Origin: a virus
Reading direction: 5' to 3' (one strand)
DNA length: 64,000 nt
Virus record (IMG/VR): IMGVR_UViG_3300009510_000002
Shown here: positions 5,388 through 54,137 of the stretch, one piece after another
How the letters are laid out: every line of letters starts with the position of its first letter
How positions within the stretch are numbered: position 1 is the first letter of the stretch
Position numbers and translations under genes: made by a program
The notes under the pieces: generated by a model
What the model saw: only the letters and a program-made list of their open reading frames with translations
Databases searched by the model: none
What the model was told of the DNA's origin: nothing

Positions 5388-5669
5388 ATGCTGCGAAAGT
5401 TACACCTCATAAGGCTAAAAAAGCCACACCAAATTAACTATACGGTGATGTTACTAATAACACTTCTAGCTATTTTAGGTACTACCAAGTGGCATATTGT
5501 CTATTCTTCAACCTCAAATAAACCAAATGGTTGGGAGGTCGAGACTTACCCCGATAAGCTGTGGCCATATACGACAACGTTATTATTTAGCCTTGGTATA
5601 CCCTTTGATAGCATCAACAAGGAAAAAATAGTTAAGCTCATCTCTGCTATCTCAGCATTATATAAATAG
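5388..5669 (+). CDS. hypothetical protein, possible membrane protein
   Basis: 93-aa ORF with a hydrophobic stretch (VMLLITLLAILG). Weak support. Confidence 0.3.
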   Translation: MLRKLHLIRLKKPHQINYTVMLLITLLAILGTTKWHIVYSSTSNKPNGWEVETYPDKLWPYTTTLLFSLGIPFDSINKEKIVKLISAISALYK

Positions 5670-7791: not shown

Positions 7792-8378
7792 TGAGGAATA
7801 AACTAGATCGCTATAACTCACCATTCTGGTATGCAACATACCTGCAAGAAGAGATTCATTTTTACGGAAACATCTTTGAGCCGTGTAACGGTGGGGGGAA
7901 CTTATCTAGGGTTTTAGCCAAAATCCCCCATACAAGGGTTATCACTAACGATATCGATTTAGAAGAGGAAGCTGATTTTCATCTTGATGTCACCGAACCA
8001 TATAGTTGGAAGCATCTACCAGATTGTGATTGGGTGGTCACAAATCCACCCTTTAGTGATGCGTTCCCTATTCTAAAGAACGCCTACCAAAAAGCTACTG
8101 GTGGTGTGGTGATGTTTCTGCGGCAGTCATTTGCAGAACCGACAGGCGATCGCGCCATGTGGCTCTACGAGCACCCACCACACGTTGTCTATGTTTACCC
8201 CCGGTTCAAGTTCAAGATGAACGATAAAGGGAGGTGGCAGACAGACACCAGTACCATTGCTGCCTTTGTGTGGATAAAATTCGCCAAACCACCAAGGCGA
8301 TCAGGTTTGATTAGTGTACCTAAATCGCTAATCAAGGACTATTACGATAACCCCGATAAGGAACCTATCGAACCATGA
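7785..8378 (+). CDS. DNA methyltransferase, amino-MTase type (N6-A or N4-C)
   Basis: Motif I-like FEPCNGGGNL and motif IV VVTNPPFS (NPPF). Confidence 0.7.
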   Translation: MVVRNKLDRYNSPFWYATYLQEEIHFYGNIFEPCNGGGNLSRVLAKIPHTRVITNDIDLEEEADFHLDVTEPYSWKHLPDCDWVVTNPPFSDAFPILKNAYQKATGGVVMFLRQSFAEPTGDRAMWLYEHPPHVVYVYPRFKFKMNDKGRWQTDTSTIAAFVWIKFAKPPRRSGLISVPKSLIKDYYDNPDKEPIEP

Positions 8379-9163
8379 CAACTAAAATCGAGTGGACGCA
8401 GGAGACTTGGAACCCTATTGTAGGGTGTAGTAAAATCTCACCTGGTTGTGTAAACTGCTATGCAATGACAGCGGCGAACCACCCCCGTCTGCAACAATAC
8501 CCCCAGTATCAATCAGTCGCTAAATGGGACGGAACAATTGAGTTTGTACAATCTCAATTGAATAAACCGACGAAGTGGCGATCGCCCAAAAGGATTTTTG
8601 TCTGTTCAATGTCGGACCTATTCCATCCTAATGTTTCGCACGACCAAATACGGATGATAATGAATGTCATCAGGTCGTGCCCACAGCATACCTTTCAGGT
8701 TTTAACTAAGCGGCCAGATAAGATGGCGGAATTTTTTGAAATCAGCGGTGAAAACTCCTACACATTGCCTAATCTGTGGGTGGGCACATCGGTAGAAGAT
8801 AGCAAATCTGCAAAAGCTCGGATTCCCATACTCGCTAAAATACCTGCCGCGATCAGGTTTCTATCCTGCGAACCACTACTAGAGATGGTTGATCTGTCAT
8901 TTATGGGAAAGGAGATTGACTGGGTGATTGTTGGTGGTGAGTCCGGTCCCGATGCCCGCCCTTGTCAAATCAAATGGATAGAGGGAATAGTGCAAGATTG
9001 CAAGAACTCAAAAATCCCAGTATTTGTAAAACAATTAGGAAGCTTTTTCTTGGATGACCCTCATTCTATTCTGTACCCAAAACTTAAGGGTAAGCGATCT
9101 GATTTTGACCTTTTCCCAGATGCTGTACGCTACCGAGAATTCCCAAAACTAAAAAATGCCTGA
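8375..9163 (+). CDS. phage Gp37/Gp68 family protein (DUF5131)
   Basis: N-terminus KIEWTQETWNPIVGCSKISPGCVNCYA is the family signature. Translationally coupled to the MTase gene. Confidence 0.8.
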   Translation: MTTKIEWTQETWNPIVGCSKISPGCVNCYAMTAANHPRLQQYPQYQSVAKWDGTIEFVQSQLNKPTKWRSPKRIFVCSMSDLFHPNVSHDQIRMIMNVIRSCPQHTFQVLTKRPDKMAEFFEISGENSYTLPNLWVGTSVEDSKSAKARIPILAKIPAAIRFLSCEPLLEMVDLSFMGKEIDWVIVGGESGPDARPCQIKWIEGIVQDCKNSKIPVFVKQLGSFFLDDPHSILYPKLKGKRSDFDLFPDAVRYREFPKLKNA

Positions 9164-16942: not shown

Positions 16943-17947
16943 ATGGCTTCCTATAACCGCTTCTACAAAATCCTGTCAATTGATGGTGGTGGTATTCGGG
17001 GGATAATCCCCGCAGCGATCCTAAAAGAGATTGAGCGACGGACCAACAAAAGAATCTACCAGTTGTTTGACCTTATTGCTGGTACTTCTACTGGAGGAAT
17101 ACTGGCTTTAGGCTTAACCACACCTAGGGAATTCAATAAAAATGGAAATTATGCACTATATTCAGCGGAAGATTTACTGAATTTGTACATAAATCAAGGT
17201 GCGGACATTTTTGCTAAATCCAGAACTTTGCCATCATTTATTCCGGACCAATTAGCTAGCTTGTTCTGTCCCAAGTACCGGGATACTGGCAGAGACAATA
17301 TTTTACATAGCTACTTTAAAGATGCATTTCTTGTAGATGCACTAACTAAAATCTTCATTACCAGCTACGATACCGTTGGACGTGTCCCAGTTTTCTTTAC
17401 TAATGATGTTGAACAAATAGGGGTTAGCTATAAAAAGCTATTTAAAGGAATAACAATGAGGCAGGCAGCGATCGCTACTTCTGCCGCTCCCACTTTCTTC
17501 CCACCATTTGAATTAGCTGATTTGTCTTTGGTTGATGGTGGAGTTTACGCCAATAACCCAGTCCACTTGGCTATAACTGAATCAATCATTAACAGCAAAG
17601 GTAGAGAAACCAGAACTCTAGATGATTTAATGGTTGTGAGTCTGGGGACCGGATCGCTCACCAGACCTTATCCCTACAATAAAACTAAAAACTGGGGAGC
17701 ACTTCAATGGGTCGGTCCATTAATTGATGTAGCTTTCGACGCACAGTCAGAGGCGATCGCATCTCAACTGGAACAAATGTTTCCTAGCGATCGCTATTAC
17801 CGTTTTCAAGCCCTATTGACTACTGCTGATGACGACATGGACAATACTTCACCGAGAAATATTTCAGATTTACTTGAAGTAGCCGATCAACTGATTATTT
17901 CTCAGGATAAAAATATAGATCGCCTTTGCCAGAATTTGATAAGTTAG
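16943..17947 (+). CDS. patatin-like phospholipase
   Basis: Oxyanion motif DGGGIRG, nucleophile elbow GTSTGG (GxSxG), catalytic Asp in SLVDGGVYANNP. Confidence 0.9.
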   Translation: MASYNRFYKILSIDGGGIRGIIPAAILKEIERRTNKRIYQLFDLIAGTSTGGILALGLTTPREFNKNGNYALYSAEDLLNLYINQGADIFAKSRTLPSFIPDQLASLFCPKYRDTGRDNILHSYFKDAFLVDALTKIFITSYDTVGRVPVFFTNDVEQIGVSYKKLFKGITMRQAAIATSAAPTFFPPFELADLSLVDGGVYANNPVHLAITESIINSKGRETRTLDDLMVVSLGTGSLTRPYPYNKTKNWGALQWVGPLIDVAFDAQSEAIASQLEQMFPSDRYYRFQALLTTADDDMDNTSPRNISDLLEVADQLIISQDKNIDRLCQNLIS

Positions 17948-24365: not shown

Positions 24366-25346
24366 ATGGATTTAAGAGTAGATTATGACTATTATATAGT
24401 TGCCTTCAGTGGGGGAAAGGATTCTCTAGCCTGTTTACTGCATCTGCTAGAGATTGGAGTACCCAAGTCCAAAATCGAGTTGTGGCATCATGAAGTAGAC
24501 GGTAGAGAAGGGTCAGATTTATTTGACTGGCCATGTACCACAGGGTATGTAAGAGCGATCGCGGCTCACTTTGAAATTCCTCTTTACTTTAGTTGGAGAC
24601 AAGGGGGGTTAGAAGGGGAAATGATGCGCGATAATACCCCAACCGCTGCCGTTAGCTTTGAAACCCCACACGGATTAGTAAATAGTGGAGGTAAAAGTAA
24701 TCATTTAGGGACTAGATTACAATTTCCTCAAACTTCAGCTAATTTAGCTGTACGTTGGTGTTCTTCTTATGCGAAAATATCAGTAATGGATGTGGGAATA
24801 GCTCATCAATCTAGATTCAGAAATTCCCGAATTTTAGTAATCACTGGTGAGCGCAGGGAAGAATCTACCAATCGGTCAAAATATGCTGAATTTGAGCCTC
24901 ACCGAAAACACTGTCAAATACGCCATGTAGACCACTGGCGACCAGTAATTGACTGGGAAGAACAAGAGGTATGGGGTATTATCAAAAGGTGGTCTGTGGT
25001 ACCACACCCGGCATATAAATTAGGATGGGGAAGAACATCATGTTTCCTGTGTATTTTCTCCTCCAACGACCAATTAGCATCGGCTTGGAAAGTGGCACCA
25101 CATAGGGTTCTCCGAATCGCTGCCTATGAAAAGTGTTTTGGGAAAACCATTAGCTTTAAAAAAGTAAAAGGTAAGGTTGTCCAAGTATCGGTACTAGACA
25201 GAGTCGCGGATGGTACACCTTTTGAAATGAATGAAGATGATATTGCTCAAGCCATGAGTAGTGATTGGTATTCACCTATTACAGTACCTCCAGAGGAATG
25301 GCAGTTACCTTTGGGGGCTTATGGTGATTCTGCTGGACCAAGTTAA
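24366..25346 (+). CDS. PAPS reductase-like PP-loop ATPase
   Basis: PP-loop motif VAFSGGKDSLA near the N-terminus. Size and Cys pattern are typical of phage PAPS-reductase/DndC-like proteins. Confidence 0.7.
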   Translation: MDLRVDYDYYIVAFSGGKDSLACLLHLLEIGVPKSKIELWHHEVDGREGSDLFDWPCTTGYVRAIAAHFEIPLYFSWRQGGLEGEMMRDNTPTAAVSFETPHGLVNSGGKSNHLGTRLQFPQTSANLAVRWCSSYAKISVMDVGIAHQSRFRNSRILVITGERREESTNRSKYAEFEPHRKHCQIRHVDHWRPVIDWEEQEVWGIIKRWSVVPHPAYKLGWGRTSCFLCIFSSNDQLASAWKVAPHRVLRIAAYEKCFGKTISFKKVKGKVVQVSVLDRVADGTPFEMNEDDIAQAMSSDWYSPITVPPEEWQLPLGAYGDSAGPS

Positions 25347-33232: not shown

Positions 33233-33889
33233 CTAAATCAAGCTAGATTTCTCTAATTTCCTAAGAATTTCTTGGATTTCTGAAAACCTACAAGATAAGG
33301 ACTGTTTGATTTTCTTGTGAACTATTCCTATCGACAATTCTCCATCAAAATGGCCGTAGTTATCCTCCGCTAATCGCATATGACGTTGATAGCCTATCAT
33401 TACTTTCTCATAGAAAGTATAATTTTCTTGCTCAATACGATCCAACTTCTTACCTTTGCGAGAAAATGCAGTTTCATAGCTTACTTCTAGCCACACAACA
33501 TAATCGCATTTAACACCACCAGTAGCTAAATCATTGATTTCCCTGATGGATTTTTGGCTAATTCCTCGTCCATATCCTTGATAGGCAATTGTGGACTGGG
33601 TAAAGCGATCGCACAACACCCATTCATCTTTTGCCAGTGCTGGTTTGATTACTTCAGTAACATGGTGATAGCGATCGGCTGAGTACATTAGTAATTCAGC
33701 CACGGGGGAAATAGAGTATTTTTCGTCTAGAATTAAACTGCGAATTTCTCTTCCCAACAGGGTAGCTCCGGGTTGTTGTGTGGTGAGAACTGGGAGTCCT
33801 AAACTTCTCAACCATTTAGCGCATAAATTAAGTTGAGTCGTTTTACCACAGCCGTCAATACCTTCAAAGACAATTAGCTTTCCTGACAT
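33233..33889 (-). CDS. tmk: thymidylate (dTMP) kinase
   Basis: LIVFEGIDGCGKTTQ P-loop and overall Tmk pattern (DRF..S..AYQG). Confidence 0.9.
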   Translation of the reverse strand: MSGKLIVFEGIDGCGKTTQLNLCAKWLRSLGLPVLTTQQPGATLLGREIRSLILDEKYSISPVAELLMYSADRYHHVTEVIKPALAKDEWVLCDRFTQSTIAYQGYGRGISQKSIREINDLATGGVKCDYVVWLEVSYETAFSRKGKKLDRIEQENYTFYEKVMIGYQRHMRLAEDNYGHFDGELSIGIVHKKIKQSLSCRFSEIQEILRKLEKSSLI

Positions 33890-39409: not shown

Positions 39410-39916
39410 TTGTACTACGACAGACACGTCATCCTCGACATGGACAAAAAACAAGCTGCTGAATTTTTAGGTGTTAGTCAGCGCATGATTGAACGCTATA
39501 CTCAGTCTGGCGAGATTGGGTGTACATATATTAAGCAAGGACGGGTAAATAAGGCTATATATGACGAAGAGGAATTAAGGAGATTTAAAGAACGGCGAGA
39601 AAAACCAATTCGTCCATCCATTACCACTGATACACCACGACAATCTCCGACATCCCACGACATTATACCGTACCCTGACACCTCCGACAGTATTGAAGAT
39701 ATCGTTGAAATAACCAGGATTTTCACCATAGGATTACAGCAAATTAGAACCAGTGAAAAGCTGGTATTAACACTGAAAGAATGTCAGTTACTAACTGGGC
39801 TTTCTCGTAAATATTTGTTGGATGCGATCGCGTCTAAGAAGCTAAAAGCCAAGTATATTGGCAGGGGGTGGAAAATTACCAGAATAGATTTAAAGGCTTT
39901 TACTAGATCCTTTTAG
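39410..39916 (+). CDS. DNA-binding protein with two excisionase/MerR-type HTH segments
   Basis: KQAAEFLGVSQRMIERYTQSGEI and LTLKECQLLTGLSRKYLLDAIASKKLKAKYIGRGWKITRIDLKAF. Confidence 0.55.
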   Translation: MYYDRHVILDMDKKQAAEFLGVSQRMIERYTQSGEIGCTYIKQGRVNKAIYDEEELRRFKERREKPIRPSITTDTPRQSPTSHDIIPYPDTSDSIEDIVEITRIFTIGLQQIRTSEKLVLTLKECQLLTGLSRKYLLDAIASKKLKAKYIGRGWKITRIDLKAFTRSF

Positions 39917-40045
39917 ATCCGTCTTCTAAGAATAGGGGGTCAAACCCCCTATCTATTTTTCTTCCTGCTAAAGATAGATTTTAAGAAACAAGGCTATAAT
40001 TTTTTTTAATTATTGTATTTTGCAAGCAATTTATTTGGTTTAAAA

Positions 40046-40531
40046 ATGTTAACAATTCAGTTAAGTACAGGAAGCCTACGTACATCGCTAAGTAGGTTTT
40101 TGGATACACCCATATTGGTCGAAAAAGTTGGCGACAAATACCAAGGGCTTGTTTTTTTAGATGGGGAGAATTTATTTAAAACCCCACTTTACAATTCCCC
40201 CAAATATACTTTACAAAAACTTCAAAGGAAAGCAGTTGAAAATTATTGCTACTCATCAAGATACCCTACCGTTATGATGAGTATTCGTGGCCAAAAGCAA
40301 AAAGTGGTTGCATTGAACGAATTGGCAGAGAATTTTTTAGGGGACAAATTAAATGGGGAACCTTCGATTTTTAGTAAATGGGGACGGGAATATATGCGGA
40401 AACACTTACTTTCTTTAAAAATTGCAGACATTGATCATTTAAATACAAAAAATGCCTTGATAGAAATTAAAAGGGTATCAAAGGCACTTTTTGTTTATTC
40501 ATTTGTAAATTGGGAGGATTCTATTTACTAA
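40046..40531 (+). CDS. hypothetical protein
   Basis: First ATG in the ORF-track frame. The track start at 40013 is TTG. Confidence 0.45.
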   Translation: MLTIQLSTGSLRTSLSRFLDTPILVEKVGDKYQGLVFLDGENLFKTPLYNSPKYTLQKLQRKAVENYCYSSRYPTVMMSIRGQKQKVVALNELAENFLGDKLNGEPSIFSKWGREYMRKHLLSLKIADIDHLNTKNALIEIKRVSKALFVYSFVNWEDSIY

Positions 40532-41327
40532 TCTCTTCATACTCTAATATCAAGTCTTCAATTAACTTAATAATTTGTTCGTAGCAATTACCTAATTTAG
40601 CGTCCCAAGTACTTTGCAGGGTGGTTAACTTTCTTCTATCCAAATATTCTACCATGAACCAAGCTATGGTATAGAGTGTATTCTCTGATATCTCTATACC
40701 ATCTACATTATTTCTAATATGGTGCAAAGTCTCAAGCGGGATATTGGTCATTCCCGCGCAATCAACCAAAGAAAAATTTCTCTTGGTCAGTACGTATATA
40801 AAAGCTTTTTGTAAGCGATTTAAAAGATCTCCGGAAATTGTACTCTGTCTTTTGTCAGATTGCCCTTTTAATCTTTCGGCTAATAATTGGCTTGATATTG
40901 CGACAATGTTAGCCAGTTCAGCCGTAGAGGCATTCTGAAGCCGAGACTCTAGGTCTTCAGCCTCAGAGACAGTACAGTTTAGTTTGTTTATCAAAAAGCT
41001 GGCCAGTGACATCCCGTAAAATTTAGCCAGCATTGCCAAGTCTGTGACTTTTGGCACATCAGTTTGAGCCGGGTCAGACCAACGCCGGATTTTGTTTCTT
41101 CCTATTTCCGGAATTTTACTTTCTATTTCTGCGGACAACTTATAGGGTGTTAGATCTTTTTCTCTGGCTTCCTGCCTGAAAAAGGTTACGAGCTTGGCTT
41201 TAATATCTTCCTCGGGTGGAAAGTAATTCGCCGATTTTACGTTTCCACTTACATCACGATCATCACGATAATTATTATCTTCCTTACCATTCACTGAAGT
41301 CTCACCGCTTAGTAACACCATAACCAC
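40521..41327 (-). CDS. double XRE-type HTH regulator encoded directly downstream of the Cas12-like gene
   Basis: KIRRWSDPAQTDVPKVTDLAMLAKFYGMSLASFL and SLVDCAGMTNIPLETLHHIRNN resemble two XRE HTH units. Confidence 0.55.
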   Translation of the reverse strand: MVMVLLSGETSVNGKEDNNYRDDRDVSGNVKSANYFPPEEDIKAKLVTFFRQEAREKDLTPYKLSAEIESKIPEIGRNKIRRWSDPAQTDVPKVTDLAMLAKFYGMSLASFLINKLNCTVSEAEDLESRLQNASTAELANIVAISSQLLAERLKGQSDKRQSTISGDLLNRLQKAFIYVLTKRNFSLVDCAGMTNIPLETLHHIRNNVDGIEISENTLYTIAWFMVEYLDRRKLTTLQSTWDAKLGNCYEQIIKLIEDLILEYEEISK

Positions 41328-41455
41328 ATACTACCGCTTTGCAACTACACATATCTTATAATATTATCAAATAAATATTTTTGCAAAACAAGTATATTTT
41401 TGCAAATCGCATGAAATACTTGTGGTGGCAGTATTTCAGCGATTTCGTTTTTAGC

Positions 41456-43336
41456 TTAAGTTTTCACCACTATTGGTTTTATTCTCTTTGTTTTAGCCGT
41501 TTTTGGTTTAACAGCCTTTCTGGTTTTTTTGATAGTGCGTTTTTTGCTGTCTACACCCTCTAGCGATTCAGGTGGCACAGGCTTGTCAGTGCGGGTAATA
41601 TGAGAAAACCATTCATAGTGCTTAATATCTTTTTCATCACAAAAAGCACCGTAATAATCATTTTGTGCAGCATTTGTATCAGCGTTTTGTTGAATTTGAT
41701 AAAGCTTACAACGTTCGTTTAAGCAGTAAAACTCAAGAGCTTTTGGGTGTCTACCTAGTTCCCCACAACAGTGACATATCTGGCTGGAATAAGGAGATGG
41801 GGACAAAGTGAAGCTATCTGGTCCCCTAAATCGCCGACATTTCTCCTCCACCAGCGATCGGTATCGTCCCCATCTAGCATCTAAAATTTCGCGATTTAAA
41901 TCAGATTGGTGTTCCGCACCATTTGGTTCATATCCTTTACCATCTGCACTTGGTATCGGATCCGGACGCTTCACCATCTCGTCTGTCGGCATTTCCTCAA
42001 TAGTTATTTTCCCAAAGCGGCGTACCAGAATAGTTGAGGATTTATGCAAAAATGCATTGGCGGGTCGCCGGATCTTGGTTTCATTGATTTTACCTTTTCG
42101 GTGGAGCGTTTTTTTGTAATTATTACTATCTCCCCGCAAATGATCCACGGACAACCCTTGCTCTTGGCGCTCCTTGATTAATTTTTTCCTATCGCTGCGT
42201 TGTCTGGCTAGTTTACGCTCGATTCTTGCTAATTTTCGAGCTTGTTTGGCAGCAAACCGAGGATTTTTGACATGGCTACCAGGTTCGTCACTGGACATGA
42301 GGTTGATTAGCCCCGTATGGACAGCTATTCCCCGCTTCCGAGGTTTAATTTTGGCTTTTTTACGTACCTGTATTGATAATTCTGCCTTTAAATCACTGAT
42401 TTGCTGCTTAAGCAACTCTTTTTCCACAAACTCCGGAGTCTTTTTCAACTGAGCTTCCAGTTTACGAATTTTAACTTCCAAAGGATGGGCACTGACAATA
42501 CACACATACCACCCGGTGGGTTCTTCCTTAATAGTTACCGCCCTAATGGCTCCGGGGGTAGATCGCACCTCTTCGGGAATTCGCTCATGATTCTTATTTA
42601 CAAATCTTAGTGATAAAGGATGCTGCTTACCTTCACCATCTACCCATTTACCAGGGAGCCTAAGTCTATCGCCATCAAACCAGATCTGCTCTGGACTAAT
42701 GCAATGGAATGATGGCAACATCTCATTCTTTTTAAAATTAGGCATACAAGCTTTTTCTATCTTGGGGTTCAAATAAGCTTCCCAAGCAGCAACTAAGCGA
42801 TTAAACACAGTCCCCTTCATCCAAGACGACGGTACAGTGAGTTCCCCCAGTAGTTTTAGTTTCGGCTGACCCTTTTCTACACGATCCTTATTTATTAGCC
42901 GCCGGCGGGAGTCTTCTTCTTCACGCATCAAATCACATCTTGTCTTAGTCAGGTACCCTGTAAGGGTCATAAAAAGGTCTGGATTTTTGGGTCTAGCCTT
43001 ATTTTCAGGGTAATGGGACAACAGAGTTGGTTCCTCTGGTAGCATTTTTGGGGGTATGGGGGTGTAGACTCCATTTTTAATAATTGCAATTTCACAAGTT
43101 GGCGATGCCCATGCCCTCTTTTTATTTAAGCGGAGCCTACAGCGGAGAATCCCGTTCATGTTGATTTTTTCTTTTGCTGCGTTTTTTAACATGAACTCGT
43201 AATACCTAAACTGCTGATACTCAATCAGCAACTCTAGCGCCTTGTTCCAAATCCACCTTAAATTAGCTGCATTTCTGCCAGTAAAGAAATTTTTCTCCCA
43301 ATCATTCATGTAGATTTTGCACTCAGTCGTTATCAT
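41456..43336 (-). CDS. TnpB/Cas12-like RNA-guided effector candidate (type V-like), RuvC-I Asp replaced by His
   Basis: TnpB-like WED/REC strings. RuvC-I position reads RGIAVHTGL (H340), RuvC-II ITIEEM (E447). Zn ribbon C521xxC524...C538x4C543. RuvC-III NADTNAAQN (D553). Adjacent CRISPR array. Confidence 0.8.
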   Translation of the reverse strand: MITTECKIYMNDWEKNFFTGRNAANLRWIWNKALELLIEYQQFRYYEFMLKNAAKEKINMNGILRCRLRLNKKRAWASPTCEIAIIKNGVYTPIPPKMLPEEPTLLSHYPENKARPKNPDLFMTLTGYLTKTRCDLMREEEDSRRRLINKDRVEKGQPKLKLLGELTVPSSWMKGTVFNRLVAAWEAYLNPKIEKACMPNFKKNEMLPSFHCISPEQIWFDGDRLRLPGKWVDGEGKQHPLSLRFVNKNHERIPEEVRSTPGAIRAVTIKEEPTGWYVCIVSAHPLEVKIRKLEAQLKKTPEFVEKELLKQQISDLKAELSIQVRKKAKIKPRKRGIAVHTGLINLMSSDEPGSHVKNPRFAAKQARKLARIERKLARQRSDRKKLIKERQEQGLSVDHLRGDSNNYKKTLHRKGKINETKIRRPANAFLHKSSTILVRRFGKITIEEMPTDEMVKRPDPIPSADGKGYEPNGAEHQSDLNREILDARWGRYRSLVEEKCRRFRGPDSFTLSPSPYSSQICHCCGELGRHPKALEFYCLNERCKLYQIQQNADTNAAQNDYYGAFCDEKDIKHYEWFSHITRTDKPVPPESLEGVDSKKRTIKKTRKAVKPKTAKTKRIKPIVVKT

Positions 43337-43489
43337 CCCCGTTACCCCTAAACCGTGACATGAACTAATTTAATCCAAAAAAGAACATCTTGCCTTTTTT
43401 GAAATTATGGATCATAATGTGTTTACTTTGAATTTTTCAAAGTCTACGCGGCTTGGTCTGCGGAAGTTAAAGCTTGTTCTGAACTTAAG

Positions 43490-43804
43490 TTCAGTATTTG
43501 GGGGACAAAATACCAGTGGGAGTACCCCCAAGCGACCAGTAGGTGAAAGCCCTGGATTGAGACAAGTCCCTCAATGAGCGGGCCGGAATCCTGCTCCGAT
43601 CCCGGGCAACCGGAATACCTACACTCTTAGAGCGATCTGCTACCTGAACCTTGACAATTGCGCGCGTGCCACCCTTGCGATCTTTGCTCTGCAACGATTT
43701 TGGGTATCTGCTGTATCTCACGCGGGAATAAACACAGCTTGTTTACCTGAACTTCGGAAACCCTTTCTGGAATTCTTTCTACGACTGGGTTCTGGAGGGG
43801 AGGG
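43490..43804. ncRNA. ORF-free GC-rich structured region between effector gene and array: tracrRNA/leader candidate
   Basis: Stems such as GGGGG(43500-04)/CCCCC(43525-29). Anti-repeat CTTGCGATCT at 43674-43683 is complementary to the repeat 3' end. The ORFs predicted here look spurious. Confidence 0.5.
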
Positions 43805-44654
43805 GTGGCGATAGGCTTTAGATGTCTGGGTAGTCGCAAGCTTGTAATGCCCAAACTTTTTGGTGTGCATCCCTAGCGGTGGCGATAGGCTTTAGATGTC
43901 TGGGTAGTCGCAAGTTTACAATAGGCAGATTCTTGATCAGCTAACGCTTAACGTGGCGATAGGCTTTAGATGTCTGGGTAGTCGCAAGCTCAACCAGCTA
44001 ATTCCTAGCTATACTGGACAATCAGTGGCGATAGAACTTAGATGTCTGGGTAGTCGCAAGTGCCTATGATCCTCTGTTCCTTAGAGTGTTGGTGTGCTCT
44101 GTGGCGATAAGCCCTAGATATCTGGGTAGTTGCAAGAATACGAGTTATTGCCGCATCTTTATCTAGGTCAACTGTAGCGATAGGCTCTAGATGTCTGGGT
44201 AGTCGCAAGAATCACGGTTGGCACGAGAGCGTTTTTCGCTCAATTTCGTGGCGATAGGCCCTAGATGTCTGGGTAGTCGCAAGCTGATCCATTCTTTCGT
44301 CACTTTCCACCCCCAATCCAGGTGGCGATAGGCCCTAGATGTCTGGGTAGTCGCAAGGTTGACATAAGTTACTGAATTTAAGTCTCGATTTAATTAGTGG
44401 CGATAGGCTCTAGATGTCTGGATAGTCGCAAGTGGAGTTATTGGATTTGGATAAACACCACGAAAAAGTGGTGATAGGCTTTAGATGTCTGGGTAGTCGC
44501 AAGTAAAATTTGAGTGTTTACTTAAATCAGGGGGTTAAAAGTGGCGATCGCACCTAGTAGATGTTAGACAGTCGCAAGACACAGAATACAGGTTTAAACT
44601 TGTTAATGACAGCATTAAAGTCGCGATCGCACTTAAATATTTAGGCAGTTGCAA
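43805..44654 (+). CRISPR. CRISPR array: 10 conserved plus 2 degenerate 36-nt repeats, 35-41 nt spacers
   Basis: Consensus GTGGCGATAGGCTTTAGATGTCTGGGTAGTCGCAAG. Repeat starts at 43805, 43879, 43953, 44025, 44101, 44174, 44248, 44322, 44397, 44468, with degenerate copies at 44541 and 44620. Strand is inferred from the degeneration gradient. Confidence 0.9.
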
Positions 44655-44690
44655 TTCTGACTAATTATTAAAAAAGGTTAAGATCCGGGA

Positions 44691-45331
44691 GTGGCGATCG
44701 CAAGTGATAGTTCTGAATGATCGCAAGTTATCTTCCTGGTTGCCACAATTTTGGGGATGCCTGGCGAAAATCGCAAGTATCCAGGTCAGGACAAGACAGG
44801 GAATAGGGATTGCAAGGGTAAGGAATTTTAGGTCTGAGCGATCGCAGGTCCGAGTATGTCGCAAGTTGAATCGTGAGCCATCGACTGTTAAAGGTCTAGC
44901 GCAGGTTTAGACAATTCCCCAAAAAGTTGTTTTCTCCTGAAAACCTTACCCCACAAAGGTTTTGGTTGCACAAGTATTTGTACTTTGATTACGAAACACA
45001 TAAATTGGGCGTAGGTCGCAAGTCAGCAGGAATTTTATCACTTAGGTTCTCACAGGCAGTTTTAGGATTGGTGGCGATCGCTAAGTATTACAGTTTTCTA
45101 GTCAAGTAGGAAAGAAAGATCGCAAGCTGTGAACAATTACTTTAAATAGGTTTAGATCGCCAAGGATGAATAAAAAGATGAGATCGCAAGTCATGGGATT
45201 GGCAAGTCGCAAGACAAATTTCTCTCCCTATTCAGATCGCAAGCTGATCCAAAATGTCAGATAGACTATTTGCTTAATGTAGTGCGATCGCAAGAACGAA
45301 GGGAACATTCCGAGTTTTGATAGATCGCAAG
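44691..45331 (+). repeat. trail of 11 exact (plus ~7 near) copies of TCGCAAG, the 3' end of the CRISPR repeat, at irregular 17-69 nt spacing
   Basis: Exact copies end at 44704, 44727, 44777, 44865, 45022, 45126, 45190, 45213, 45243, 45294, 45331, all on the + strand. 44691-44704 GTGGCGATCGCAAG is a collapsed repeat. Confidence 0.8.
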
Positions 45332-48183: not shown

Positions 48184-50118
48184 CTAAGCTGTTTCTTGCA
48201 TTAAGTGGCCATATCGTTGGAAAACTTTTGGCGATCGCGACATTTTTACTCTGAAAAGACGACCGAATCCAGACTTACAAATATGCTCACCCCAGCGATC
48301 GACCTGAGCCTGATCACGGAAGAGTCGCCCAATATTAGACTGGGTAAGAAATTCTTCAAACCCGTGGATTTCAATTTGGTCCATCACATTTTCATGATGA
48401 ATTGAATCAAATTCCACAAAAAAGTCTACTTCGGGTTCCGCTTCTTTTTGGCGGAGTTTGCGAAGATAAGCTAAGTAGTCCTTGTAATATTCTTTCGCCC
48501 TGACGTAATTGCCGGAAATCTCACTCATGCAATTAACGCGCGTCGGTTGGTAATTGCTCTTACCGTTGATATTCGTGAGTTTACATTCCTCCTCACGTAC
48601 CTTAATATACCATCCGAGAAAATTCCTGTCAACATTATCACCATTCATCCACGGGTCAGCGGACGAACTGCGATGAACACCCTTGATCGGGTTAAGGTGG
48701 CGTTTCAAAAGTGAACCGCAGTATTCGTCTAGCTCATCATCGGTTTTGTTAATCCATTCATCCGTATGATCAGCAACATTTGGTCTATGTAATATTGGCT
48801 TGGGGATATTAGTTCGATTGTTCGGCTTTGTCGAACGAGGCGCGGAACCTTCTTTTTTAAATCCGTTGGGAAATGAGTGATCTGTGTGCTGCTTAATTTC
48901 TTCACATGGCGAAGATGTTGTTTCTGGTTCTTCTTCAGTTGTGCTGCTAACGGTAGGTTCTTCTGAAATTAACGTCAGGTTAATAGCTGGTAGATCTTGG
49001 ATTACCTCAAATCCAGGGATAAGGGGTAAATCTGGAAATTCCTCTTTGGCCATTTCTTCTTTCTCCTCCGATTTTGGAACAAAATCCTCCTCACTTGTCT
49101 TTGGGTGGGGGGTGGGATTTGTATTTGTAGTAGTTAATGAAGTAATAATTGAATTCCTTATATATAGGGTGTCTTCACTTCCTTCATTCACTTGGGGTGA
49201 ACAGTCTTGGCTACATACGTCTGTAGATGGGCCCAAAAAAACAGCCCCTGAATCCTGTAAACTAAGATCCTTTATCTCTGTCTTGTCAGGTACGAGAGAT
49301 AAGTGAGCTTTATCGGATCTAGAAAGCCCTCTCGATTTTTTTGATGATTGTTTGGATTTAAACTTCCCAGTAAGTATTGCAATTTTGCTGTGGTTCCTAA
49401 AATACCACGTCGTTCCCTCTAAGTGGTCGTGATAGCTGCAAAAGTATTTTTCTTCGCCATCCTCACTTAAAAATGGGTTTGGTGATGCAATAAACTGGGT
49501 GTAAGATTTATGCTTAACACCAATTTTGTCAAAAGCTGTTCTGAACTGAAATTCGCTAAAACCTAGTTCCTCGGTCCAACTGTCACCTAACCTGTAATGT
49601 CGGTTGTCGTTGGGGGATAAAAATTTGTAGAAACCTTCGCCTTTGGTTATGTCAAACCAGTATTCCAATCTGGTAAAGACAATAGCGGCGTTAATATCTT
49701 TTACAAGGTCAAGAATTGGGCGACTGTAGCCAATAAAGTCCATACGTTTTATACTGAGAAAGTTAGAAAAATTAGAAGAGTGCGATCTATCTAGATGTGT
49801 TTGGTGTGAACTTGAGTTTATATGCGACTGTTCACACGATTGGGCATCTATTTTTGTTGTTGGTGTATTTATGGTGGGCGACGAAAACATACTATCCCTG
49901 TCTCCGCCCCCATTCTTTTTTGCACCTCTGGGGCTAATACCTTTTTCCCTTACGGTAAGGAGATCTTGAGGCTTGTAATTTATAAAAATCTCAGAATTCT
50001 TGTTGACAGTATCGCTAGAAAATGATATATTCAGCATTGATTCTTTGTTTAACATTTCTTGCTCCTTCTTCTGCTGAGTTAGAGGTGTTGTAGATAAAGA
50101 TCCTTCTTTAGCTAGCAT
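48184..50118 (-). CDS. hypothetical protein, candidate replication initiator/organizer by position
   Basis: 644-aa ORF directly upstream of dnaB with a repeat-bearing AT-rich region upstream. Possible winged-helix segment (INAAIVFTRLEYWF...ELGFSEFQFRTAFDKIG). Confidence 0.55.
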   Translation of the reverse strand: MLAKEGSLSTTPLTQQKKEQEMLNKESMLNISFSSDTVNKNSEIFINYKPQDLLTVREKGISPRGAKKNGGGDRDSMFSSPTINTPTTKIDAQSCEQSHINSSSHQTHLDRSHSSNFSNFLSIKRMDFIGYSRPILDLVKDINAAIVFTRLEYWFDITKGEGFYKFLSPNDNRHYRLGDSWTEELGFSEFQFRTAFDKIGVKHKSYTQFIASPNPFLSEDGEEKYFCSYHDHLEGTTWYFRNHSKIAILTGKFKSKQSSKKSRGLSRSDKAHLSLVPDKTEIKDLSLQDSGAVFLGPSTDVCSQDCSPQVNEGSEDTLYIRNSIITSLTTTNTNPTPHPKTSEEDFVPKSEEKEEMAKEEFPDLPLIPGFEVIQDLPAINLTLISEEPTVSSTTEEEPETTSSPCEEIKQHTDHSFPNGFKKEGSAPRSTKPNNRTNIPKPILHRPNVADHTDEWINKTDDELDEYCGSLLKRHLNPIKGVHRSSSADPWMNGDNVDRNFLGWYIKVREEECKLTNINGKSNYQPTRVNCMSEISGNYVRAKEYYKDYLAYLRKLRQKEAEPEVDFFVEFDSIHHENVMDQIEIHGFEEFLTQSNIGRLFRDQAQVDRWGEHICKSGFGRLFRVKMSRSPKVFQRYGHLMQETA

Positions 50119-50154
50119 TTCTTGCTCCTTCTTCTGCTGAGTTAGAGGTGTTGT
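50053..50154 (-). repeat. tandem duplication (two perfect 39-nt copies, 63-nt period) duplicating the RBS and ATG of gene 48184..50118
   Basis: Copies at 50053-50091 and 50116-50154. The minus strand reads ACAACACCTCTAACTCAGCAGAAGAAGGAGCAAGAAATG. Confidence 0.85.
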
Positions 50155-50185
50155 GCTTAAATTGGTGAATTGATTTCAAAAAACA

Positions 50186-50236
50186 GTTCATCGTTTTACC
50201 TCACTTGACCGACTGTTACTTGACCGTTCATCGTTT
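50186..50236. promoter_or_regulatory. nested direct repeats GTTCATCGTTTT (x2) and ACTTGACCG (x2), iteron/operator-like
   Basis: Repeats at 50186-97 and 50225-36, and at 50203-11 and 50217-25. Lies in the divergent intergenic region next to the replication module. Confidence 0.4.
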
Positions 50237-50502
50237 TTCTTTGTTAATTGCCCTCTCCCCCGGTATCCCATACGCTCCCCGTGCCAATGAGGTAGTATGT
50301 GTGGTACATTAAGAGGAATTAAAACACCGATAAAATTTGAGTAAAATATTTTGCTTCTTGTCTCCTTCCCCCCCTGGGTAGGGGATATTTTTTTTGTTCC
50401 TTAGAGAACATACCATTTTACACTCCGTTTGACAATAAAATAAAAAAATCACAATTTTCAAAAAAGAACGAACAAATATGATATAAAAAATCTTATCAGA
50501 GT

Positions 50503-51372
50503 TTGGTCAAAAAAGTGCTGGCCGATAAAATTTCCACACAACCGACATCAGTTTCAAAAACGTCACCCGTAGACTGCTTTGTGGCAACCGTGCCTGAGCC
50601 AAAGTCTAAACTGCCATACGCCTCACAGATCGAGGCGTTCAGAAATGATATTCGAGTTCTATCCGATTCCCTTTCCCCCAATGGGGTAGCTTGGCTTTGG
50701 TGCAAGGATTTTATATGGAAGCCCATACCTAACTGGGATCTACCAGGTATAGGAGTTTCCTATCGAGATATAGCAAAAGATTACGTAGCTCGCCTATTGG
50801 GGGCAGAACCCCCTACTAATCCGCAGGATGAACCAAATAGGGAAGATTTTTGGTTTAAAGATGCAAGTCAAGGTAAATATATCTCTGTCCATGTAAAGTG
50901 GGTTCCCAATGGGAAAGATGCTTGCTTAGAAGTTGATTTAGGGAAGCTAGCCTCTGATGTTTATGTGCTTGTTCAAGGTGAAGAGATGAACATCTTAGGG
51001 TGGGCTGGTATCAATTATCTAAAATGTGTTGGCCCTACAAATCGTGGGGATGGATCTGGTGCTAAATATTATTTGCATCACACACGGCTTTTACCCTTTG
51101 ATGCTATAGAAGCACATTCACAATATCTTCGTTGGGGAGAATGGGCCCATTTCCCATCCCGGATAGTTAACCTGCTGCGGTGTGCTGGTTTTTTTATCCA
51201 AGAATTTAGGAAGGAAGATGATCGCCACATCCTGCTCGCCTCAAAAAGCAGAAGGACGACACCCGATCGCACTCCCCGGACATATCAAGACTGCATCGAA
51301 TTGGTCTGCGATCCATTTGACTCCCCAGTGGTTAGAACCCACTGGGGATTTTTGCGGGAAAAACGGAACTAA
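50503..51372 (+). CDS. hypothetical protein
   Basis: 289-aa ORF with TTG start in the track. True start uncertain. Confidence 0.55.
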   Translation: MVKKVLADKISTQPTSVSKTSPVDCFVATVPEPKSKLPYASQIEAFRNDIRVLSDSLSPNGVAWLWCKDFIWKPIPNWDLPGIGVSYRDIAKDYVARLLGAEPPTNPQDEPNREDFWFKDASQGKYISVHVKWVPNGKDACLEVDLGKLASDVYVLVQGEEMNILGWAGINYLKCVGPTNRGDGSGAKYYLHHTRLLPFDAIEAHSQYLRWGEWAHFPSRIVNLLRCAGFFIQEFRKEDDRHILLASKSRRTTPDRTPRTYQDCIELVCDPFDSPVVRTHWGFLREKRN

Positions 51373-51392
51373 CACAATTTAAAGGAAGCAAA

Positions 51393-51683
51393 ATGGTACG
51401 TATCTTTAGAAACATCCTTGCTGTCAGCTATTTCCTCGATAGAGGAACAATAATCAGAAATGTAAAGTGTCAGGGTAATGTCCTAACTGGACAGTTCTGG
51501 GATAAAGATAACCCCGACCAGGTTTCTAGTGTGGAAATCGTTCTAGATATCCCCAACCTTAAATACTCCCTATTCGTATCCAACCCATCTGGGGCTGGTT
51601 CTGCCTCTAGAGGTATGAACCTAGCCTACGCCAAAGGGTGGGAATCTCTGCTGTCAACTGCAAAATTACCTATAGCCGCTTAA
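51393..51683 (+). CDS. hypothetical protein
   Basis: 96-aa ORF with SD AAAGGAAG upstream. Confidence 0.5.
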   Translation: MVRIFRNILAVSYFLDRGTIIRNVKCQGNVLTGQFWDKDNPDQVSSVEIVLDIPNLKYSLFVSNPSGAGSASRGMNLAYAKGWESLLSTAKLPIAA

Positions 51684-51686
51684 CTT

Positions 51687-54137
51687 ATGTTCCCCCAATC
51701 AGCAACTTGTGCGTTCCCCGTGTTTTATAAATCTTACTCTCGCTATATCAAAGGAGCTAGAGAAAGTTGGAAGATGACGTGCGATCGCACTACACAAGCT
51801 TTGTTTGAATTGGGGGATTTTGCGGACTGGGAGCGACAGCTAGTCCGAGAGAGCCTAGATAAATTACACGTTATTCCCTCCGGCCGCTGGTTATGGGTGG
51901 GGGGAACAGAATGGTTAAACAAACCAGAGAACTACTCTGGAGCCTTTAATTGTACTGGTACAGATATTATTGATTGGCATAGCTTTGGCTTGCTAATGGG
52001 GTTAGCTATGCAAGGCAGTGGTACTGGTGCTGTCTTAGAGCCTCGCTGTATTAATAATCTGCCCATGATTCGCGTTCACATTGATGTGGAAGTTGCAGAT
52101 AACTTAGGGCAGAATTACCCCTATCCAGAGGGTGTAGGAGACACAACTGAAGTCCACCTAATTAAACCTGGCTTTTATAGCATGTCCGTGGGGGACTCCC
52201 GACAAGGGTGGGTAGATGCATATCAGTGGTTCTTGGAAAAGTCCAGCGATCCTGATGAGTTACCCAGTATTAAAGTCATCGTTGATCTATCCTTTGTTCG
52301 CCAATCAGGTTCTCCACTAAAAGGGTTTGGTGGAACTGCTAATCCAGTAAAGTTGCCGAACCTATTTAAAAAAATCACTAAAATTACCAACGCAGCTGTA
52401 GGCAGATATCTCACCTCACTTGAATGTTGCCTATTAATAGATGAAGCTGCTTTGTGTGTTGTAGCTGGAAATATCCGCCGTAGTGCCGGAATCCGCCAAT
52501 TTTGTGCCGATGACCTGATCGCAGAAAACGCTAAAACTAGCCTTTGGCAGCAAGATAGTTTAGGTAATTGGAAGATTGACCCAGACCGTGATGCCCTGCG
52601 GATGGCAAACCATACCCGTGTCTTCCACCGTAAACCTACCCTTGATGAATGTATTGGCTCGGTTCGGAAGCAGTACTATAGCGGTGAAGGTGCAATTCAA
52701 TGGGCTGGAGAGGCGATCGCCCGTGCCAACGCGGATATTCTTAACACCTCAGAATTAAAGCAGCAGTTTTTAGATAGCTACGAGGGAAATAGATTTTATG
52801 CCGCAAGCACTCTGAGGGCGATCAGTTATCGGGCGGGTGTTGAAATGGATGAGGATGAGCTAGATCATCGGATGTCTAGGTATTCTCTTAACCCATGTGG
52901 AGAAATTTGTGGTAAAGATTTTCACTGTAACCTCTCTGAGGTGCATTTATCACAAATTAACCCATTAGACTTTGAATCCCAACGTAAAGCTTTTAGGGCA
53001 GGAGCTTTAATCGTCTGTGCATTACTTAAGCGTGGATTCACCGAAGAACGGTACCAGCGATCGCGCGATTTAGATCCGATTGTGGCAGTGTCGTTTACGG
53101 GATGGTTTGACTTCTGCGTGAATCTGTTTGGTGTGAAGTATTTAGAATGGTATGCAGCGGGTCGGGGTTTAGATTGGGGGCAATACCCGGATGAGAAGTT
53201 TATCATCCTTAAACCCAACGCCACTTTTGATAAGTATCAATCTGTTCTGTATAAAGATCACCTGAAAATCTTTCTACCACCTGAGATTTATCGGATTTGT
53301 AGCGATCGCTTTTTAAGGCTTGGGGATGAGTTCCGGCAAACACTAGGTCAGGTATTCCAAATAATTGAGGAAATATATCTTTCGCAATGGAAAGGTATAG
53401 TTGCCCAGATGGTTGAGAGTTACTGTGACTACCATTTACTCAAACAACCAAACCGATTTACCACTGTTCAGCCCGCTGGCACCAAAAGTCTCCTAACTGG
53501 CTCAAGTCCAGGGTGGCATCCTCCCAAGGATACCTACTACCTTCGCCGGATTACGATGCCCAAAAATGATCCGGTGGCTCTAGCATGCATTGACTACGGT
53601 TACAGTGTGGTTCCCTCTCAGCTAGATAAGGATAAGCATGGTGTTCTGCTAGATGACCCCTTTGACCCCCGCTGTACTGAATGGTTAGTTGAAATTCCTA
53701 CTTGCACTAATTGGGCACATCTGCCGGGTGTTGATCAAGTTGATATTTCCCAACTCCCATTTATTGCCCAATGGCGAGCCTATATGACTGTCCAGCAGCA
53801 CTGGACAACCTTCAACACCAGCGCCACTTTGGAAATTACCGCAGATGAAATCGAGGAAGCTGGACGCTGTATCCACCAAGCCATTGAGCAGGACCAAGGA
53901 TATGTGTCTGCTGCAATCCTAGCTCGGTTCCATGATAAACAAACCTTTCCCCGCCTCCCATTTGAGCCAATTACTAAAGATCAGTACGAAGTGTTGATGG
54001 CGATCGCTCTAAGTAGGCGAAAAAATGATGATTTTGACTATTTAGTTAATTTACACACACCTACAGACTTTTCTCAATCTAAAGAAGCTGGTGATGGTGT
54101 GGTGGGATGTGATTCAGGAGCCTGTTTATTGCCATGA
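51687..54137 (+). CDS. nrdJ: ribonucleotide reductase, class II (B12-dependent)-like
   Basis: N-terminal PVFYKSYSRY...RESW, catalytic region SLNPCGEICGKDFHCNLSEV, C-terminal redox Cys pair CDSGAC. No nrdB seen nearby. Confidence 0.8.
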   Translation: MFPQSATCAFPVFYKSYSRYIKGARESWKMTCDRTTQALFELGDFADWERQLVRESLDKLHVIPSGRWLWVGGTEWLNKPENYSGAFNCTGTDIIDWHSFGLLMGLAMQGSGTGAVLEPRCINNLPMIRVHIDVEVADNLGQNYPYPEGVGDTTEVHLIKPGFYSMSVGDSRQGWVDAYQWFLEKSSDPDELPSIKVIVDLSFVRQSGSPLKGFGGTANPVKLPNLFKKITKITNAAVGRYLTSLECCLLIDEAALCVVAGNIRRSAGIRQFCADDLIAENAKTSLWQQDSLGNWKIDPDRDALRMANHTRVFHRKPTLDECIGSVRKQYYSGEGAIQWAGEAIARANADILNTSELKQQFLDSYEGNRFYAASTLRAISYRAGVEMDEDELDHRMSRYSLNPCGEICGKDFHCNLSEVHLSQINPLDFESQRKAFRAGALIVCALLKRGFTEERYQRSRDLDPIVAVSFTGWFDFCVNLFGVKYLEWYAAGRGLDWGQYPDEKFIILKPNATFDKYQSVLYKDHLKIFLPPEIYRICSDRFLRLGDEFRQTLGQVFQIIEEIYLSQWKGIVAQMVESYCDYHLLKQPNRFTTVQPAGTKSLLTGSSPGWHPPKDTYYLRRITMPKNDPVALACIDYGYSVVPSQLDKDKHGVLLDDPFDPRCTEWLVEIPTCTNWAHLPGVDQVDISQLPFIAQWRAYMTVQQHWTTFNTSATLEITADEIEEAGRCIHQAIEQDQGYVSAAILARFHDKQTFPRLPFEPITKDQYEVLMAIALSRRKNDDFDYLVNLHTPTDFSQSKEAGDGVVGCDSGACLLP

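Follow-up and report, generated by a model that had tools for sequence, protein, structure and literature searches.

Results

The locus and its parts

The stretch of DNA analysed here, which we call the window, is a piece of 64,000 nucleotides (64 kb; 86 open reading frames, ORFs) from a virus, IMG/VR record IMGVR_UViG_3300009510_000002. Our subject is a probable CRISPR-Cas (short palindromic repeats, clustered and regularly interspaced, with their associated proteins) locus in it, in which a gene for a small TnpB-derived effector protein on the minus strand lies next to a putative scaffold RNA region and a repeat array on the plus strand, as follows.

41456..43336, minus strand: effector gene, 626 amino acids (aa), divergent type V-U2 (C2c8)/Cas12p-like and TnpB-derived (from the ORF, hidden Markov models (HMMs) and Foldseek)
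43443..43804, plus strand: putative full trans-activating CRISPR RNA (tracrRNA) or scaffold region, 362 nt, with a GC content of 0.52 against 0.41 for the window
43805..44503, plus strand: CRISPR array of 10 repeats of 36 nt, consensus GTGGCGATAGGCTTTAGATGTCTGGGTAGTCGCAAG, and 9 spacers of 35-40 nt (repeat search)
44504..44727, plus strand: trailer end, with 3 further spacers and 3 degenerate repeats at 44542-44579, 44620-44655 and 44691-44727 (read from the sequence)

An earlier, sequence-only reading of this DNA had described a phage-borne effector with a tracr-like region and an array, and no adaptation genes. This description is borne out: the 626-aa ORF is present as claimed, the repeats and the first hairpin of the scaffold (located with the covariance model R3, below) are in place, and a Pfam scan finds none of the Cas1, Cas2 and Cas4 families among the 86 ORFs of the window.

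The effector and its relatives

The same reading had held that the effector could not be placed in a named subtype. In fact, it can be placed in the type V-U2 (C2c8)/Cas12p neighbourhood, as a divergent member, by profile HMMs, by comparison with Protein Data Bank (PDB) structures and by Foldseek. Namely, the top NCBIfam family for the effector is V_cas_c2c8 (NF038192, V-U2; 7e-50, 170.5 bits), the top PADLOC model is Cas12u2 (1.2e-47), with the Cas12f models and Cas12u4 ranking behind, and the zinc ribbon matches Pfam PF07282, Cas12f1-like_TNB, above its cutoff (2.3e-6, 28.1 bits against 26.3). C2c8 is also the top NCBIfam family for all ten near relatives tested, and two of them, P0006 and P0011, pass its cutoff. 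The closest solved structure by sequence is Cas12p (PDB 9jfs; 3e-32 over residues 164-572, identity about 20%), the 'Cas12 hacker' of type V-P, a phage-encoded, tracrRNA-dependent nuclease of 500-700 aa with a GTN protospacer-adjacent motif (PAM) that is activated by host thioredoxin (bioRxiv 10.1101/2025.01.20.633832; PDB 9jfs, 9jg3). An AlphaFold (AF2) model of the effector was usable when built from a 10-sequence alignment (predicted local distance difference test, pLDDT, 79) and unusable when built from the single sequence (pLDDT 43.5). With the former, Foldseek returns Cas12p-TrxA-guide-DNA complexes first (1e-24), then TnpB (3.5e-11), Cas12f, TranC and Cas12m; TM-scores against the Cas12p structures are 0.32-0.38.

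How divergent the protein is can be judged from an exhaustive HMMER search of 1.84 billion representatives, in which its nearest relative is 39% identical and just nine proteins score below 1e-30. A word-indexed protein search gave nothing outside the query's own cluster, and a metagenome scan was swamped by generic TnpB matches, owing to the RuvC-III pattern. The assigned start codon is supported by the N-terminus (M1, T3, W28, W30, N31), which aligns with homologues from Met1.

Catalytic residues and the putative thioredoxin pocket

The residues that bear on the function of the effector, all encoded on the minus strand, are these.

42317..42319: codon CAT for His340, which stands where RuvC-I has its catalytic Asp (alignment and DNA read)
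41996..41998: RuvC-II Glu447 (ITIEEM), retained; invariant alignment column, Glu in 114/120
41678..41680: RuvC-III Asp553 (NADTNAAQN), retained; invariant alignment column, Asp in 111/120
41708..41776: zinc ribbon (TNB) cysteines C521, C524, C538 and C543, between RuvC-II and RuvC-III (Pfam; Cys columns kept in 113-114/120)
43094..43096: Cys81 of the CxIA motif, aligned with Cas12p Cys127/Ile129 of the thioredoxin-binding TB.a pocket (alignment)

By eye, the protein had earlier been credited with the full TnpB/Cas12 layout. RuvC-II, RuvC-III and the zinc ribbon are indeed conserved, but the loss of the RuvC-I Asp had been missed: the triad is H340, E447 and D553, and a complete RuvC D-E-D is not present. 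The RuvC-I motif reads GIAVHTGL, as against a consensus of GIDPGV among homologues. In a survey of the catalytic columns over 119 homologues of at least 380 aa (120 sequences with the window protein), this position holds Asp in 115 homologues and His in none. The four homologues without this Asp have lost the RuvC-II/III acidic residues as well, whereas the window protein has kept both. An assembly artefact is an unlikely source of His340, since an identical 626-aa protein occurs in an independent Logan assembly of SRR5829575, the reads of which may share the window's sample. It is established from RNase H-fold nucleases and from D-to-A mutants of Cas9 and Cas12 that both catalytic metals are bridged by the first Asp of RuvC and that its replacement abolishes cleavage. 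By this analogy, DNA cleavage by the effector is expected to be strongly reduced or absent.

In Cas12p, C127 is the thioredoxin-contacting cysteine and I129 a residue of the pocket (bioRxiv 10.1101/2025.01.20.633832). Cys81 and Ile83 of the effector align with these two, and I63, L64 and L68 with I110, I111 and L115 (the 9jfs numbering being read through P0014, a close Cas12p relative). The CxIA motif is invariant in the homologue alignment, with Cys81 kept in 68 of the 76 homologues that have the region, and by analogy the effector probably uses host thioredoxin through this pocket. In P0008, P0009, P0014 and 9jfs, the CxIA motif is followed by an additional stretch of about 35 aa, which in Cas12p forms the basic loop TB.b; it is absent in the window effector and in canonical C2c8.

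The CRISPR array and its orientation

The good repeats recur at intervals of 71-76 nt over 43805-44503, and with the degenerate ones the array extends over 43805-44727 and holds 12 unique spacers of 35-40 nt. The ten good and two degenerate repeats counted before are all found, as is the uniqueness of the spacers; the count of 12 repeats omits the third degenerate repeat at 44691-44727, with which the feature extends about 70 nt further than had been thought, and the spacer range given was slightly wide (35-41 nt). Similarly, the array does lie upstream of the effector start codon, at a distance of 468 nt (43337-43804) and not 469. The 20-nt core of the repeat has ten matches in the window against 0.00 expected and none elsewhere in the 64 kb; being confined to the array, it is not a dispersed repeat.

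The two ends of the array differ in their state of preservation. The three effector-proximal repeats are identical, whereas seven of the ten good ones have point changes; at the distal end, every one of the three degenerate repeats has turned into a sequence with a site for HIP1, the cyanobacterial octamer GCGATCGC. Substitutions cluster in the 5' part of the repeat, as had been observed (nt 1-22 hold 15 of them and nt 23-36 hold 2; Fisher p=0.02). The plus-strand repeat is identical in register at 18 of 36 positions to the repeat of Aphanizomenon phage vB_AphaS-CL131 (CL131) read on its effector-sense strand, and at 17 of 24 positions at the 3' end to the repeat of L146, which lies beside P0005, among the nearest relatives of the effector. 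In at least 24 of 60 IMG/VR phage loci encoding relatives, the array follows the gene on the same strand, and on the gene strand the relatives' repeats end in ..GCAAG, ..GGAAG, ..GAAAG or ..GAAAC. Taken together, the decay from proximal to distal repeats, the conservation of the 3' part, the strand of the relatives' arrays and the homology to the CL131 and L146 repeats show, as far as comparison can, that the sense of the CRISPR RNA (crRNA) is the plus strand, divergent from the effector gene. They also lend comparative support to the earlier proposal that the conserved 3' part is the crRNA handle, with the plus-strand transcription that it implies.

As a separate observation, spacers 1 and 2 (43841-43952) resemble each other beyond chance (15/38 positions, ungapped), and Tandem Repeats Finder extends the 74-nt period there with 83% matches. 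They could be directed at variants of one target site, or stem from a partial duplication.

The putative scaffold RNA

The intergenic region between effector and array contains the following elements.

43443..43484, plus strand: 5' element of the scaffold, hairpin S1 and then GGAAGUUAAAGCUUGU (covariance model R3)
43447..43462, plus strand: S1, stem 43447-43451 with 43458-43462, loop CUUGGU at 43452-43457 (R3, helix covariation)
43452..43455, plus strand: CUUG, pseudoknot partner of CAAG, the last 4 nt of every repeat (complementarity across loci)
43632..43646, plus strand: top candidate anti-repeat GCGAucugCUACCUG, pairing with repeat nt 23-33 (position and pairing comparison)
43533..43536, plus strand: alternative candidate anti-repeat CGAC, 4 bp, at the homologous position in relatives (about 113-125 nt after S1)
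43646..43659, plus strand: 14-mer GAACCTTGACAATT, identical in L012, L015, L016 and L017
43390..43440, both strands: overlapping divergent promoter-like sites, TTGCCT-17-CATAAT (plus) and TTGAAA-18-TATGAT (minus) (consensus scan)

The strongest evidence concerns the first of these. R3 is a covariance model of 41 positions, covering S1 and the GGAAnUUAAGCCUGU motif that follows it, built from nine relatives with the window excluded. Its top match in the whole window, on both strands, is 43443-43484 on the plus strand (22.2 bits, E about 6e-5; the next match has 14 bits), and this placement of S1 indicates that transcription of the RNA module would lead away from the effector gene. Over 11 sequences, 87% of the S1 helix is paired, with compensatory changes in four of its five pairs, and none of 500 shuffles matched its pairing, both-side changes and covariation score; the window's own contribution is a swap of C-G to G-C. 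Moreover, the first four nucleotides of the S1 loop complement the last four of the repeat in all 13 loci, which was equalled by 2 of 720 permutations, and they do so with pairs of five types, namely CUUG:CAAG (in the window and CL131, among others), CUUC:GAAG, CUUU:AAAG, CCUU:AAGG and, in the Cas12p-like loci, GUUU:AAAC. The same loop-repeat pseudoknot has been resolved in the cryo-electron microscopy structure of Cas12p (bioRxiv 10.1101/2025.01.20.633832). The distance from S1 to the array, 362 nt, lies inside the 184-426 nt of the relatives. On this comparative ground, S1 and its pseudoknot partner are shown, and the tracr/scaffold is placed on the plus strand from about 43443.

With the C-terminal protein tails of relatives, tblastn gives weak matches in the intergenic region, to one frame of its plus strand (KVYAAWSAEVK, compared with VYRAWAWE..K), and at the DNA level this match is S1 itself, which in CL131-type genes lies within the coding tail after RuvC-III. 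The 14-mer GAACCTTGACAATT stands about 150 nt upstream of the arrays of the four loci that share it, in otherwise dissimilar scaffolds, and at a similar distance in the window; it includes TTGACA, with no matching -10 box. The plus-strand promoter-like site aligns with TTGCTT-17-TATAAT upstream of the L003 scaffold. Rfam has no relevant family in the intergenic region, and single-strand folding of the region is no more stable than that of shuffles on either strand. Strong repeat-duplex matches at 36.5-37.3 kb were rejected as G/T-rich coding sequence, not repeats.

The second and third matches of R3 in the window are similar hairpins at 50348-50382 and 50654-50690, both on the minus strand, intergenic and about 300 nt apart, of the form CUACCC(C)-4 nt-GGGGAAG (E about 0.04-0.05). 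They are probably unrelated, because their loops are too short for the pseudoknot tetranucleotide.

Phage context and history of the locus

The window belongs to a tailed cyanophage. PHROG and Pfam identify a large terminase (TerL), a head maturation protease, an endolysin, a B12-type ribonucleotide reductase (RNR), DnaB, two DNA methyltransferases and NblA. These genes confirm the phage context; TerL, RNR and DnaB were among the flanking genes already listed. Over 98% of its length, the TerL shares 59% identity with the CL131 protein, and the phage that carries the locus is related to CL131. Megablast and blastn against GenBank phages gave no match to the locus or to its intergenic region.

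The HIP1 octamer has 101 sites in the 64 kb against 0.16 expected, or about one per 630 nt, and the locus lies in the largest stretch free of it.

39832..44543, no strand: largest HIP1-free stretch of the window, with two ORFs of unknown function in it besides the effector, the scaffold and the array's ten good repeats

The gap in question measures 4720 nt, and gaps that large are expected 0.06 times. The stretch is a possible recently acquired island. Together, this gap and the degenerate repeats turned into HIP1 sites suggest that the locus was acquired fairly recently and that the trailer end is its oldest part. The two ORFs, a plus-strand one of 172 aa and a minus-strand one of 268 aa, adjoin the effector at 40013-41327; neither PHROG nor PADLOC gives a match to them, and they may have been co-acquired with the CRISPR locus. 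The second of the two longest HIP1-free stretches, 48239-51780, surrounds an unannotated 644-aa ORF at 48184-50118.

In nearly all relatives, effector, scaffold and array follow one another on one strand, with the scaffold often overlapping the coding tail. In the window, the scaffold-array module is upstream and inverted, and the effector has no long C-terminal tail. A simple inversion of the effector body was not adopted as the explanation: the C-terminus of the effector still aligns weakly with the VYRAWAWE region of relatives, and loss of a module is at least as likely. In particular, two Cas12p-like IMG/VR phage loci, L005 (modules at 1-1000 and 5002-5523 of the contig) and L059 (1166-1901 and 7269-7867), have two tracr-array modules each, one downstream on the same strand and one divergent, upstream and with a diverged repeat. 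An ancestor with two modules that lost the downstream one is therefore as plausible as inversion.

A different arrangement is seen in the Cylindrospermopsis phages Cr-LKS4 (OQ625504; L148, 1362-1900) and CrV-01T (MH636380; L149, 1140-1900), where two tandem Cas12p-type tracr-like genes (R1 E-values of 1e-10 to 1e-17, S1 loop GUUC) lie on the same strand upstream of a 668-aa Cas12p-like 'transposase'. A perfect TTGACA-17-TATAAT precedes both Cr-LKS4 copies and the one CrV-01T copy whose upstream sequence was read. There is no CRISPR array in the gap upstream of these effectors, and an RNR gene comes directly after them; the tracr-like genes may be stand-alone guide RNAs.

Several other genes of the window deserve mention. 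PADLOC models of Cas10_Id/Cas10d match one of the 86 ORFs (6.5e-36, 9.6e-23 and 2.4e-21), which was not located among the 40 ORFs scanned one by one; if a phage carries a piece of the type I-D large subunit, it could serve as a decoy or as an anti-CRISPR. A patatin-like phospholipase at 16943-17947 (plus strand), unusual phage cargo, matches PADLOC phospholipase 'Effector' models (1.9e-66). Strong matches to candidate defence proteins are found at 8375-9163 (plus; PDC-M41B/M30B, 1e-75), 33233-33889 (minus; PDC-M51B, 3e-14) and 24366-25346 (plus; BrxP/DndC-like PAPS-reductase domain, 5e-16).

Discussion

We read these features as a compact class 2 type V CRISPR-Cas locus of a CL131-like cyanophage, with an effector on the minus strand and a scaffold and 12-spacer array on the plus strand, and we would give this reading a probability of about 0.78. 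In the working that we propose, the locus would be expressed and its RNAs processed, and, by analogy with Cas12p, the CUUG of the S1 loop would form a pseudoknot with the CAAG that ends each repeat, while a second, short anti-repeat would pair with the repeat nucleotides just upstream of CAAG. The effector would bind the resulting pair of tracr and crRNA and probably, by way of the Cys81 pocket, host thioredoxin as well, and the complex would then recognise PAM-flanked double-stranded DNA complementary to a spacer. Likely targets would be competing phages or other mobile elements, and the phage alone would presumably be unable to acquire new spacers.

That said, a number of results weigh against this reading. 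The C2c8 score of the effector is well under the curated NCBIfam cutoff of 350 bits; the near relatives P0002-P0005, at 225-321 bits, are under it as well. The effector has no TB.b loop, which in Cas12p (K137, R138, K156, K159) couples thioredoxin to DNA cleavage. R1 and R2, covariance models of the whole Cas12p-type tracrRNA, give nothing in the window's intergenic region, whereas they recover copies in Cas12p-like loci and Cylindrospermopsis phages (E 1e-10 to 1e-44), and nhmmer with the scaffold/tail regions of four relatives finds no match. No anti-repeat rises above the window-wide background of duplex energies: with the whole repeat, the rank of the intergenic region is no better than about 170-200th among 6293 positions, for which reason a long anti-repeat was rejected. 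The promoter-like sites are no commoner than in shuffled sequence, so as promoters they are only suggestive. Finally, the protospacer and PAM searches that the sequence-only reading had proposed yielded no protospacer and hence no PAM: the window itself has none, with up to 9 mismatches allowed for every spacer, and there were only chance-level matches in GenBank phages (E of 2 or more), none in PLSDB plasmids, and no exact match in IMG/VR to 22-23-mers of six spacers. Among 149 fetched loci, the spacers give chance 13-14-mers alone. In terms of classification, the locus misses strict membership of both families on account of the C2c8 cutoff, the TB.b loop, the tracrRNA beyond S1 and the RuvC triad.

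What the effector does is a separate question, on which we are much less certain. RNA-guided binding and blocking as its main mode is what we tentatively favour, at a little short of even odds; that it still cuts is doubtful, and that it is a recently disabled remnant somewhat more doubtful still. A more specific proposal, rather unlikely but in our opinion worth stating, is that a naturally cleavage-deficient effector has been kept for RNA-guided DNA binding, as a phage form of CRISPR interference ('CRISPRi') that would silence, and not cut, genes belonging to rival phages or to the host cyanobacterium. Such an effector may also be gated by host thioredoxin, and hence by the photosynthetic redox state of the cell.

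Could the protein be a fully active RNA-guided nuclease after all, cutting rival DNA as Cas12p and the V-U2 effectors would? For this, His340 would have to bind a metal such as Mn2+, or a neighbouring acidic residue would have to substitute for the Asp. Cas12p works with Mg2+ or Mn2+ (bioRxiv 10.1101/2025.01.20.633832), and the window protein has an intact RuvC-II, RuvC-III and zinc ribbon, having kept the two acidic residues that were lost along with the RuvC-I Asp in four homologues. Against these points, His340 has no counterpart in any of the 119 homologues. The general experience that replacing the first RuvC Asp abolishes cleavage in RNase H-fold nucleases speaks in the same direction, and we regard full activity as rather unlikely, if by no means negligible.

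Alternatively, the locus may be a decaying, non-functional remnant, horizontally acquired and now being lost, with a dead nuclease (D340H), an array that cannot be renewed and is eroding at its oldest repeats, and outdated spacers. His340 is unique among the 120 sequences, the three distal repeats are degenerate and converted to HIP1 sites, seven of the ten good repeats have point changes, the anti-repeat pairing at the homologous position amounts to just 4 bp, and there are neither protospacers in the searches above nor adaptation genes among the 86 ORFs. However, the 626-codon ORF is intact and keeps E447, D553, the four cysteines and Cys81. The 3' 14 nt of the repeat, S1 and its pseudoknot partner are likewise intact and mutually complementary, and the three leader-proximal repeats are identical. 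What is more, failure to find protospacers is usual for environmental phage arrays, given the limited collections that can be searched. Decay is, in our judgement, unlikely.

The weakest alternative, extremely improbable and effectively refuted within the window, is an IS200/IS605-type TnpB transposon whose repeats are insertion sequence (IS) ends or a dispersed host or phage family. It had been raised in the form of a multi-copy TnpB and has in its favour weak matches to the OrfB_IS605 and TnpB HMMs and the GenBank label 'transposase' on the CL131, Cr-LKS4 and CrV-01T homologues, but IS200_TnpB gives 65.6 bits where its cutoff is 425 and IS607_TnpB 46 bits where it is 350, the effector is the sole TnpB-like protein among the 86 ORFs, Pfam finds no TnpA (Y1), serine recombinase or Tn7 (tnsB, tnsC, tniQ) family among them, the repeat is confined to a regularly spaced array with unique spacers, and relatives adjoin arrays in at least 24 phage contigs.

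Returning to the type V CRISPR-Cas reading, the earlier estimate of its novelty was too high. The V-U2 effector and array of cyanophage CL131 were published in 2018 (PMC6293099), and a characterisation of Cas12p, also encoded by phages, and of its tracrRNA followed in 2025 (bioRxiv 10.1101/2025.01.20.633832; PDB 9jfs). In other words, this kind of system has already been described in a sister phage and, for Cas12p, biochemically; the window copy is a very divergent one with its RNA module flipped. With CL131 it shares the phage lineage, the 36-nt repeats (18/36), S1 with CUUG:CAAG, the lack of other cas genes and C2c8 as the top HMM. Nevertheless, the two effectors are about 29% identical over the C-terminal third alone, and that of CL131 keeps the RuvC-I Asp. 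The CL131 locus lies beside TerL, with its array about 255 nt downstream of the gene, whereas the window locus is elsewhere in the genome, and the 5' end of the scaffold, which is inside the coding tail (VYRAWAWE) in CL131-type genes, is non-coding and on the opposite strand in the window. Cas12p, too, is phage-encoded, miniature and TnpB-like, and shares the Cys and several hydrophobic residues of the pocket, as well as an S1 loop that pairs in a pseudoknot with the final 4 nt of the repeat, which is about 37 nt long in Cas12p. It differs in sequence (about 20% identity), in having the TB.b loop and the RuvC-I Asp where the window effector has no such loop and a His, in its pseudoknot (GUUU:AAAC against CUUG:CAAG), S1 being the only part common to both tracrRNAs, and in its array, which is downstream and not upstream and divergent.

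Other systems are more distant. Cas12k (V-K, formerly V-U5, of the cyanobacterial CRISPR-associated transposons) is also small and tracrRNA-dependent, with repeats ending in ..GAAAG and an impaired RuvC, and binds without cutting; but nothing is left of its RuvC triad and its partners are TnsB, TnsC and TniQ, whereas the window has no Tn7-like genes, and its structural match to the effector is far weaker (Foldseek E about 1e-3 to 1e-4). Cas12m (V-M, formerly V-U1) is a miniature effector that interferes by binding or transcriptional blocking and so provides a precedent for binding only, although its RuvC triad is intact, it needs no tracrRNA and its structural match is distant (Foldseek 6e-8). 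CasPhi (Cas12j) of huge phages likewise combines a phage effector and an array with no adaptation module, but it needs no tracrRNA, processes its own crRNA and matches poorly in structure (Foldseek 6e-4). The evolutionary ancestor, TnpB with its omega RNA (reRNA) in IS200/IS605 elements, shares the RuvC and zinc-ribbon core, and a further likeness is that most V-U2 relatives have a scaffold RNA reaching into the 3' end of the gene; the window differs from it in having no TnpA or IS ends, a single-copy gene, a guide from a multi-spacer array and HMM scores far under the cutoffs.

Our findings do not overturn the current understanding, but refine a recently opened family. Miniature type V systems of phages are of interest as weapons in virus-virus conflict and as compact scaffolds for genome editing, and the locus described here adds to them a branch that diverges strongly and falls between canonical C2c8 and Cas12p, in which the pocket Cys is kept and the coupling loop is absent. 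It is, moreover, an example of an RNA module that is detached from the coding tail of the effector and inverted. By comparison across loci, the Cas12p-type pseudoknot appears to be common to V-U2 loci, including that of CL131, whose authors found no tracrRNA (PMC6293099). Finally, if the protein is functional, its natural His at the first RuvC position would make it a ready-made DNA-binding variant.

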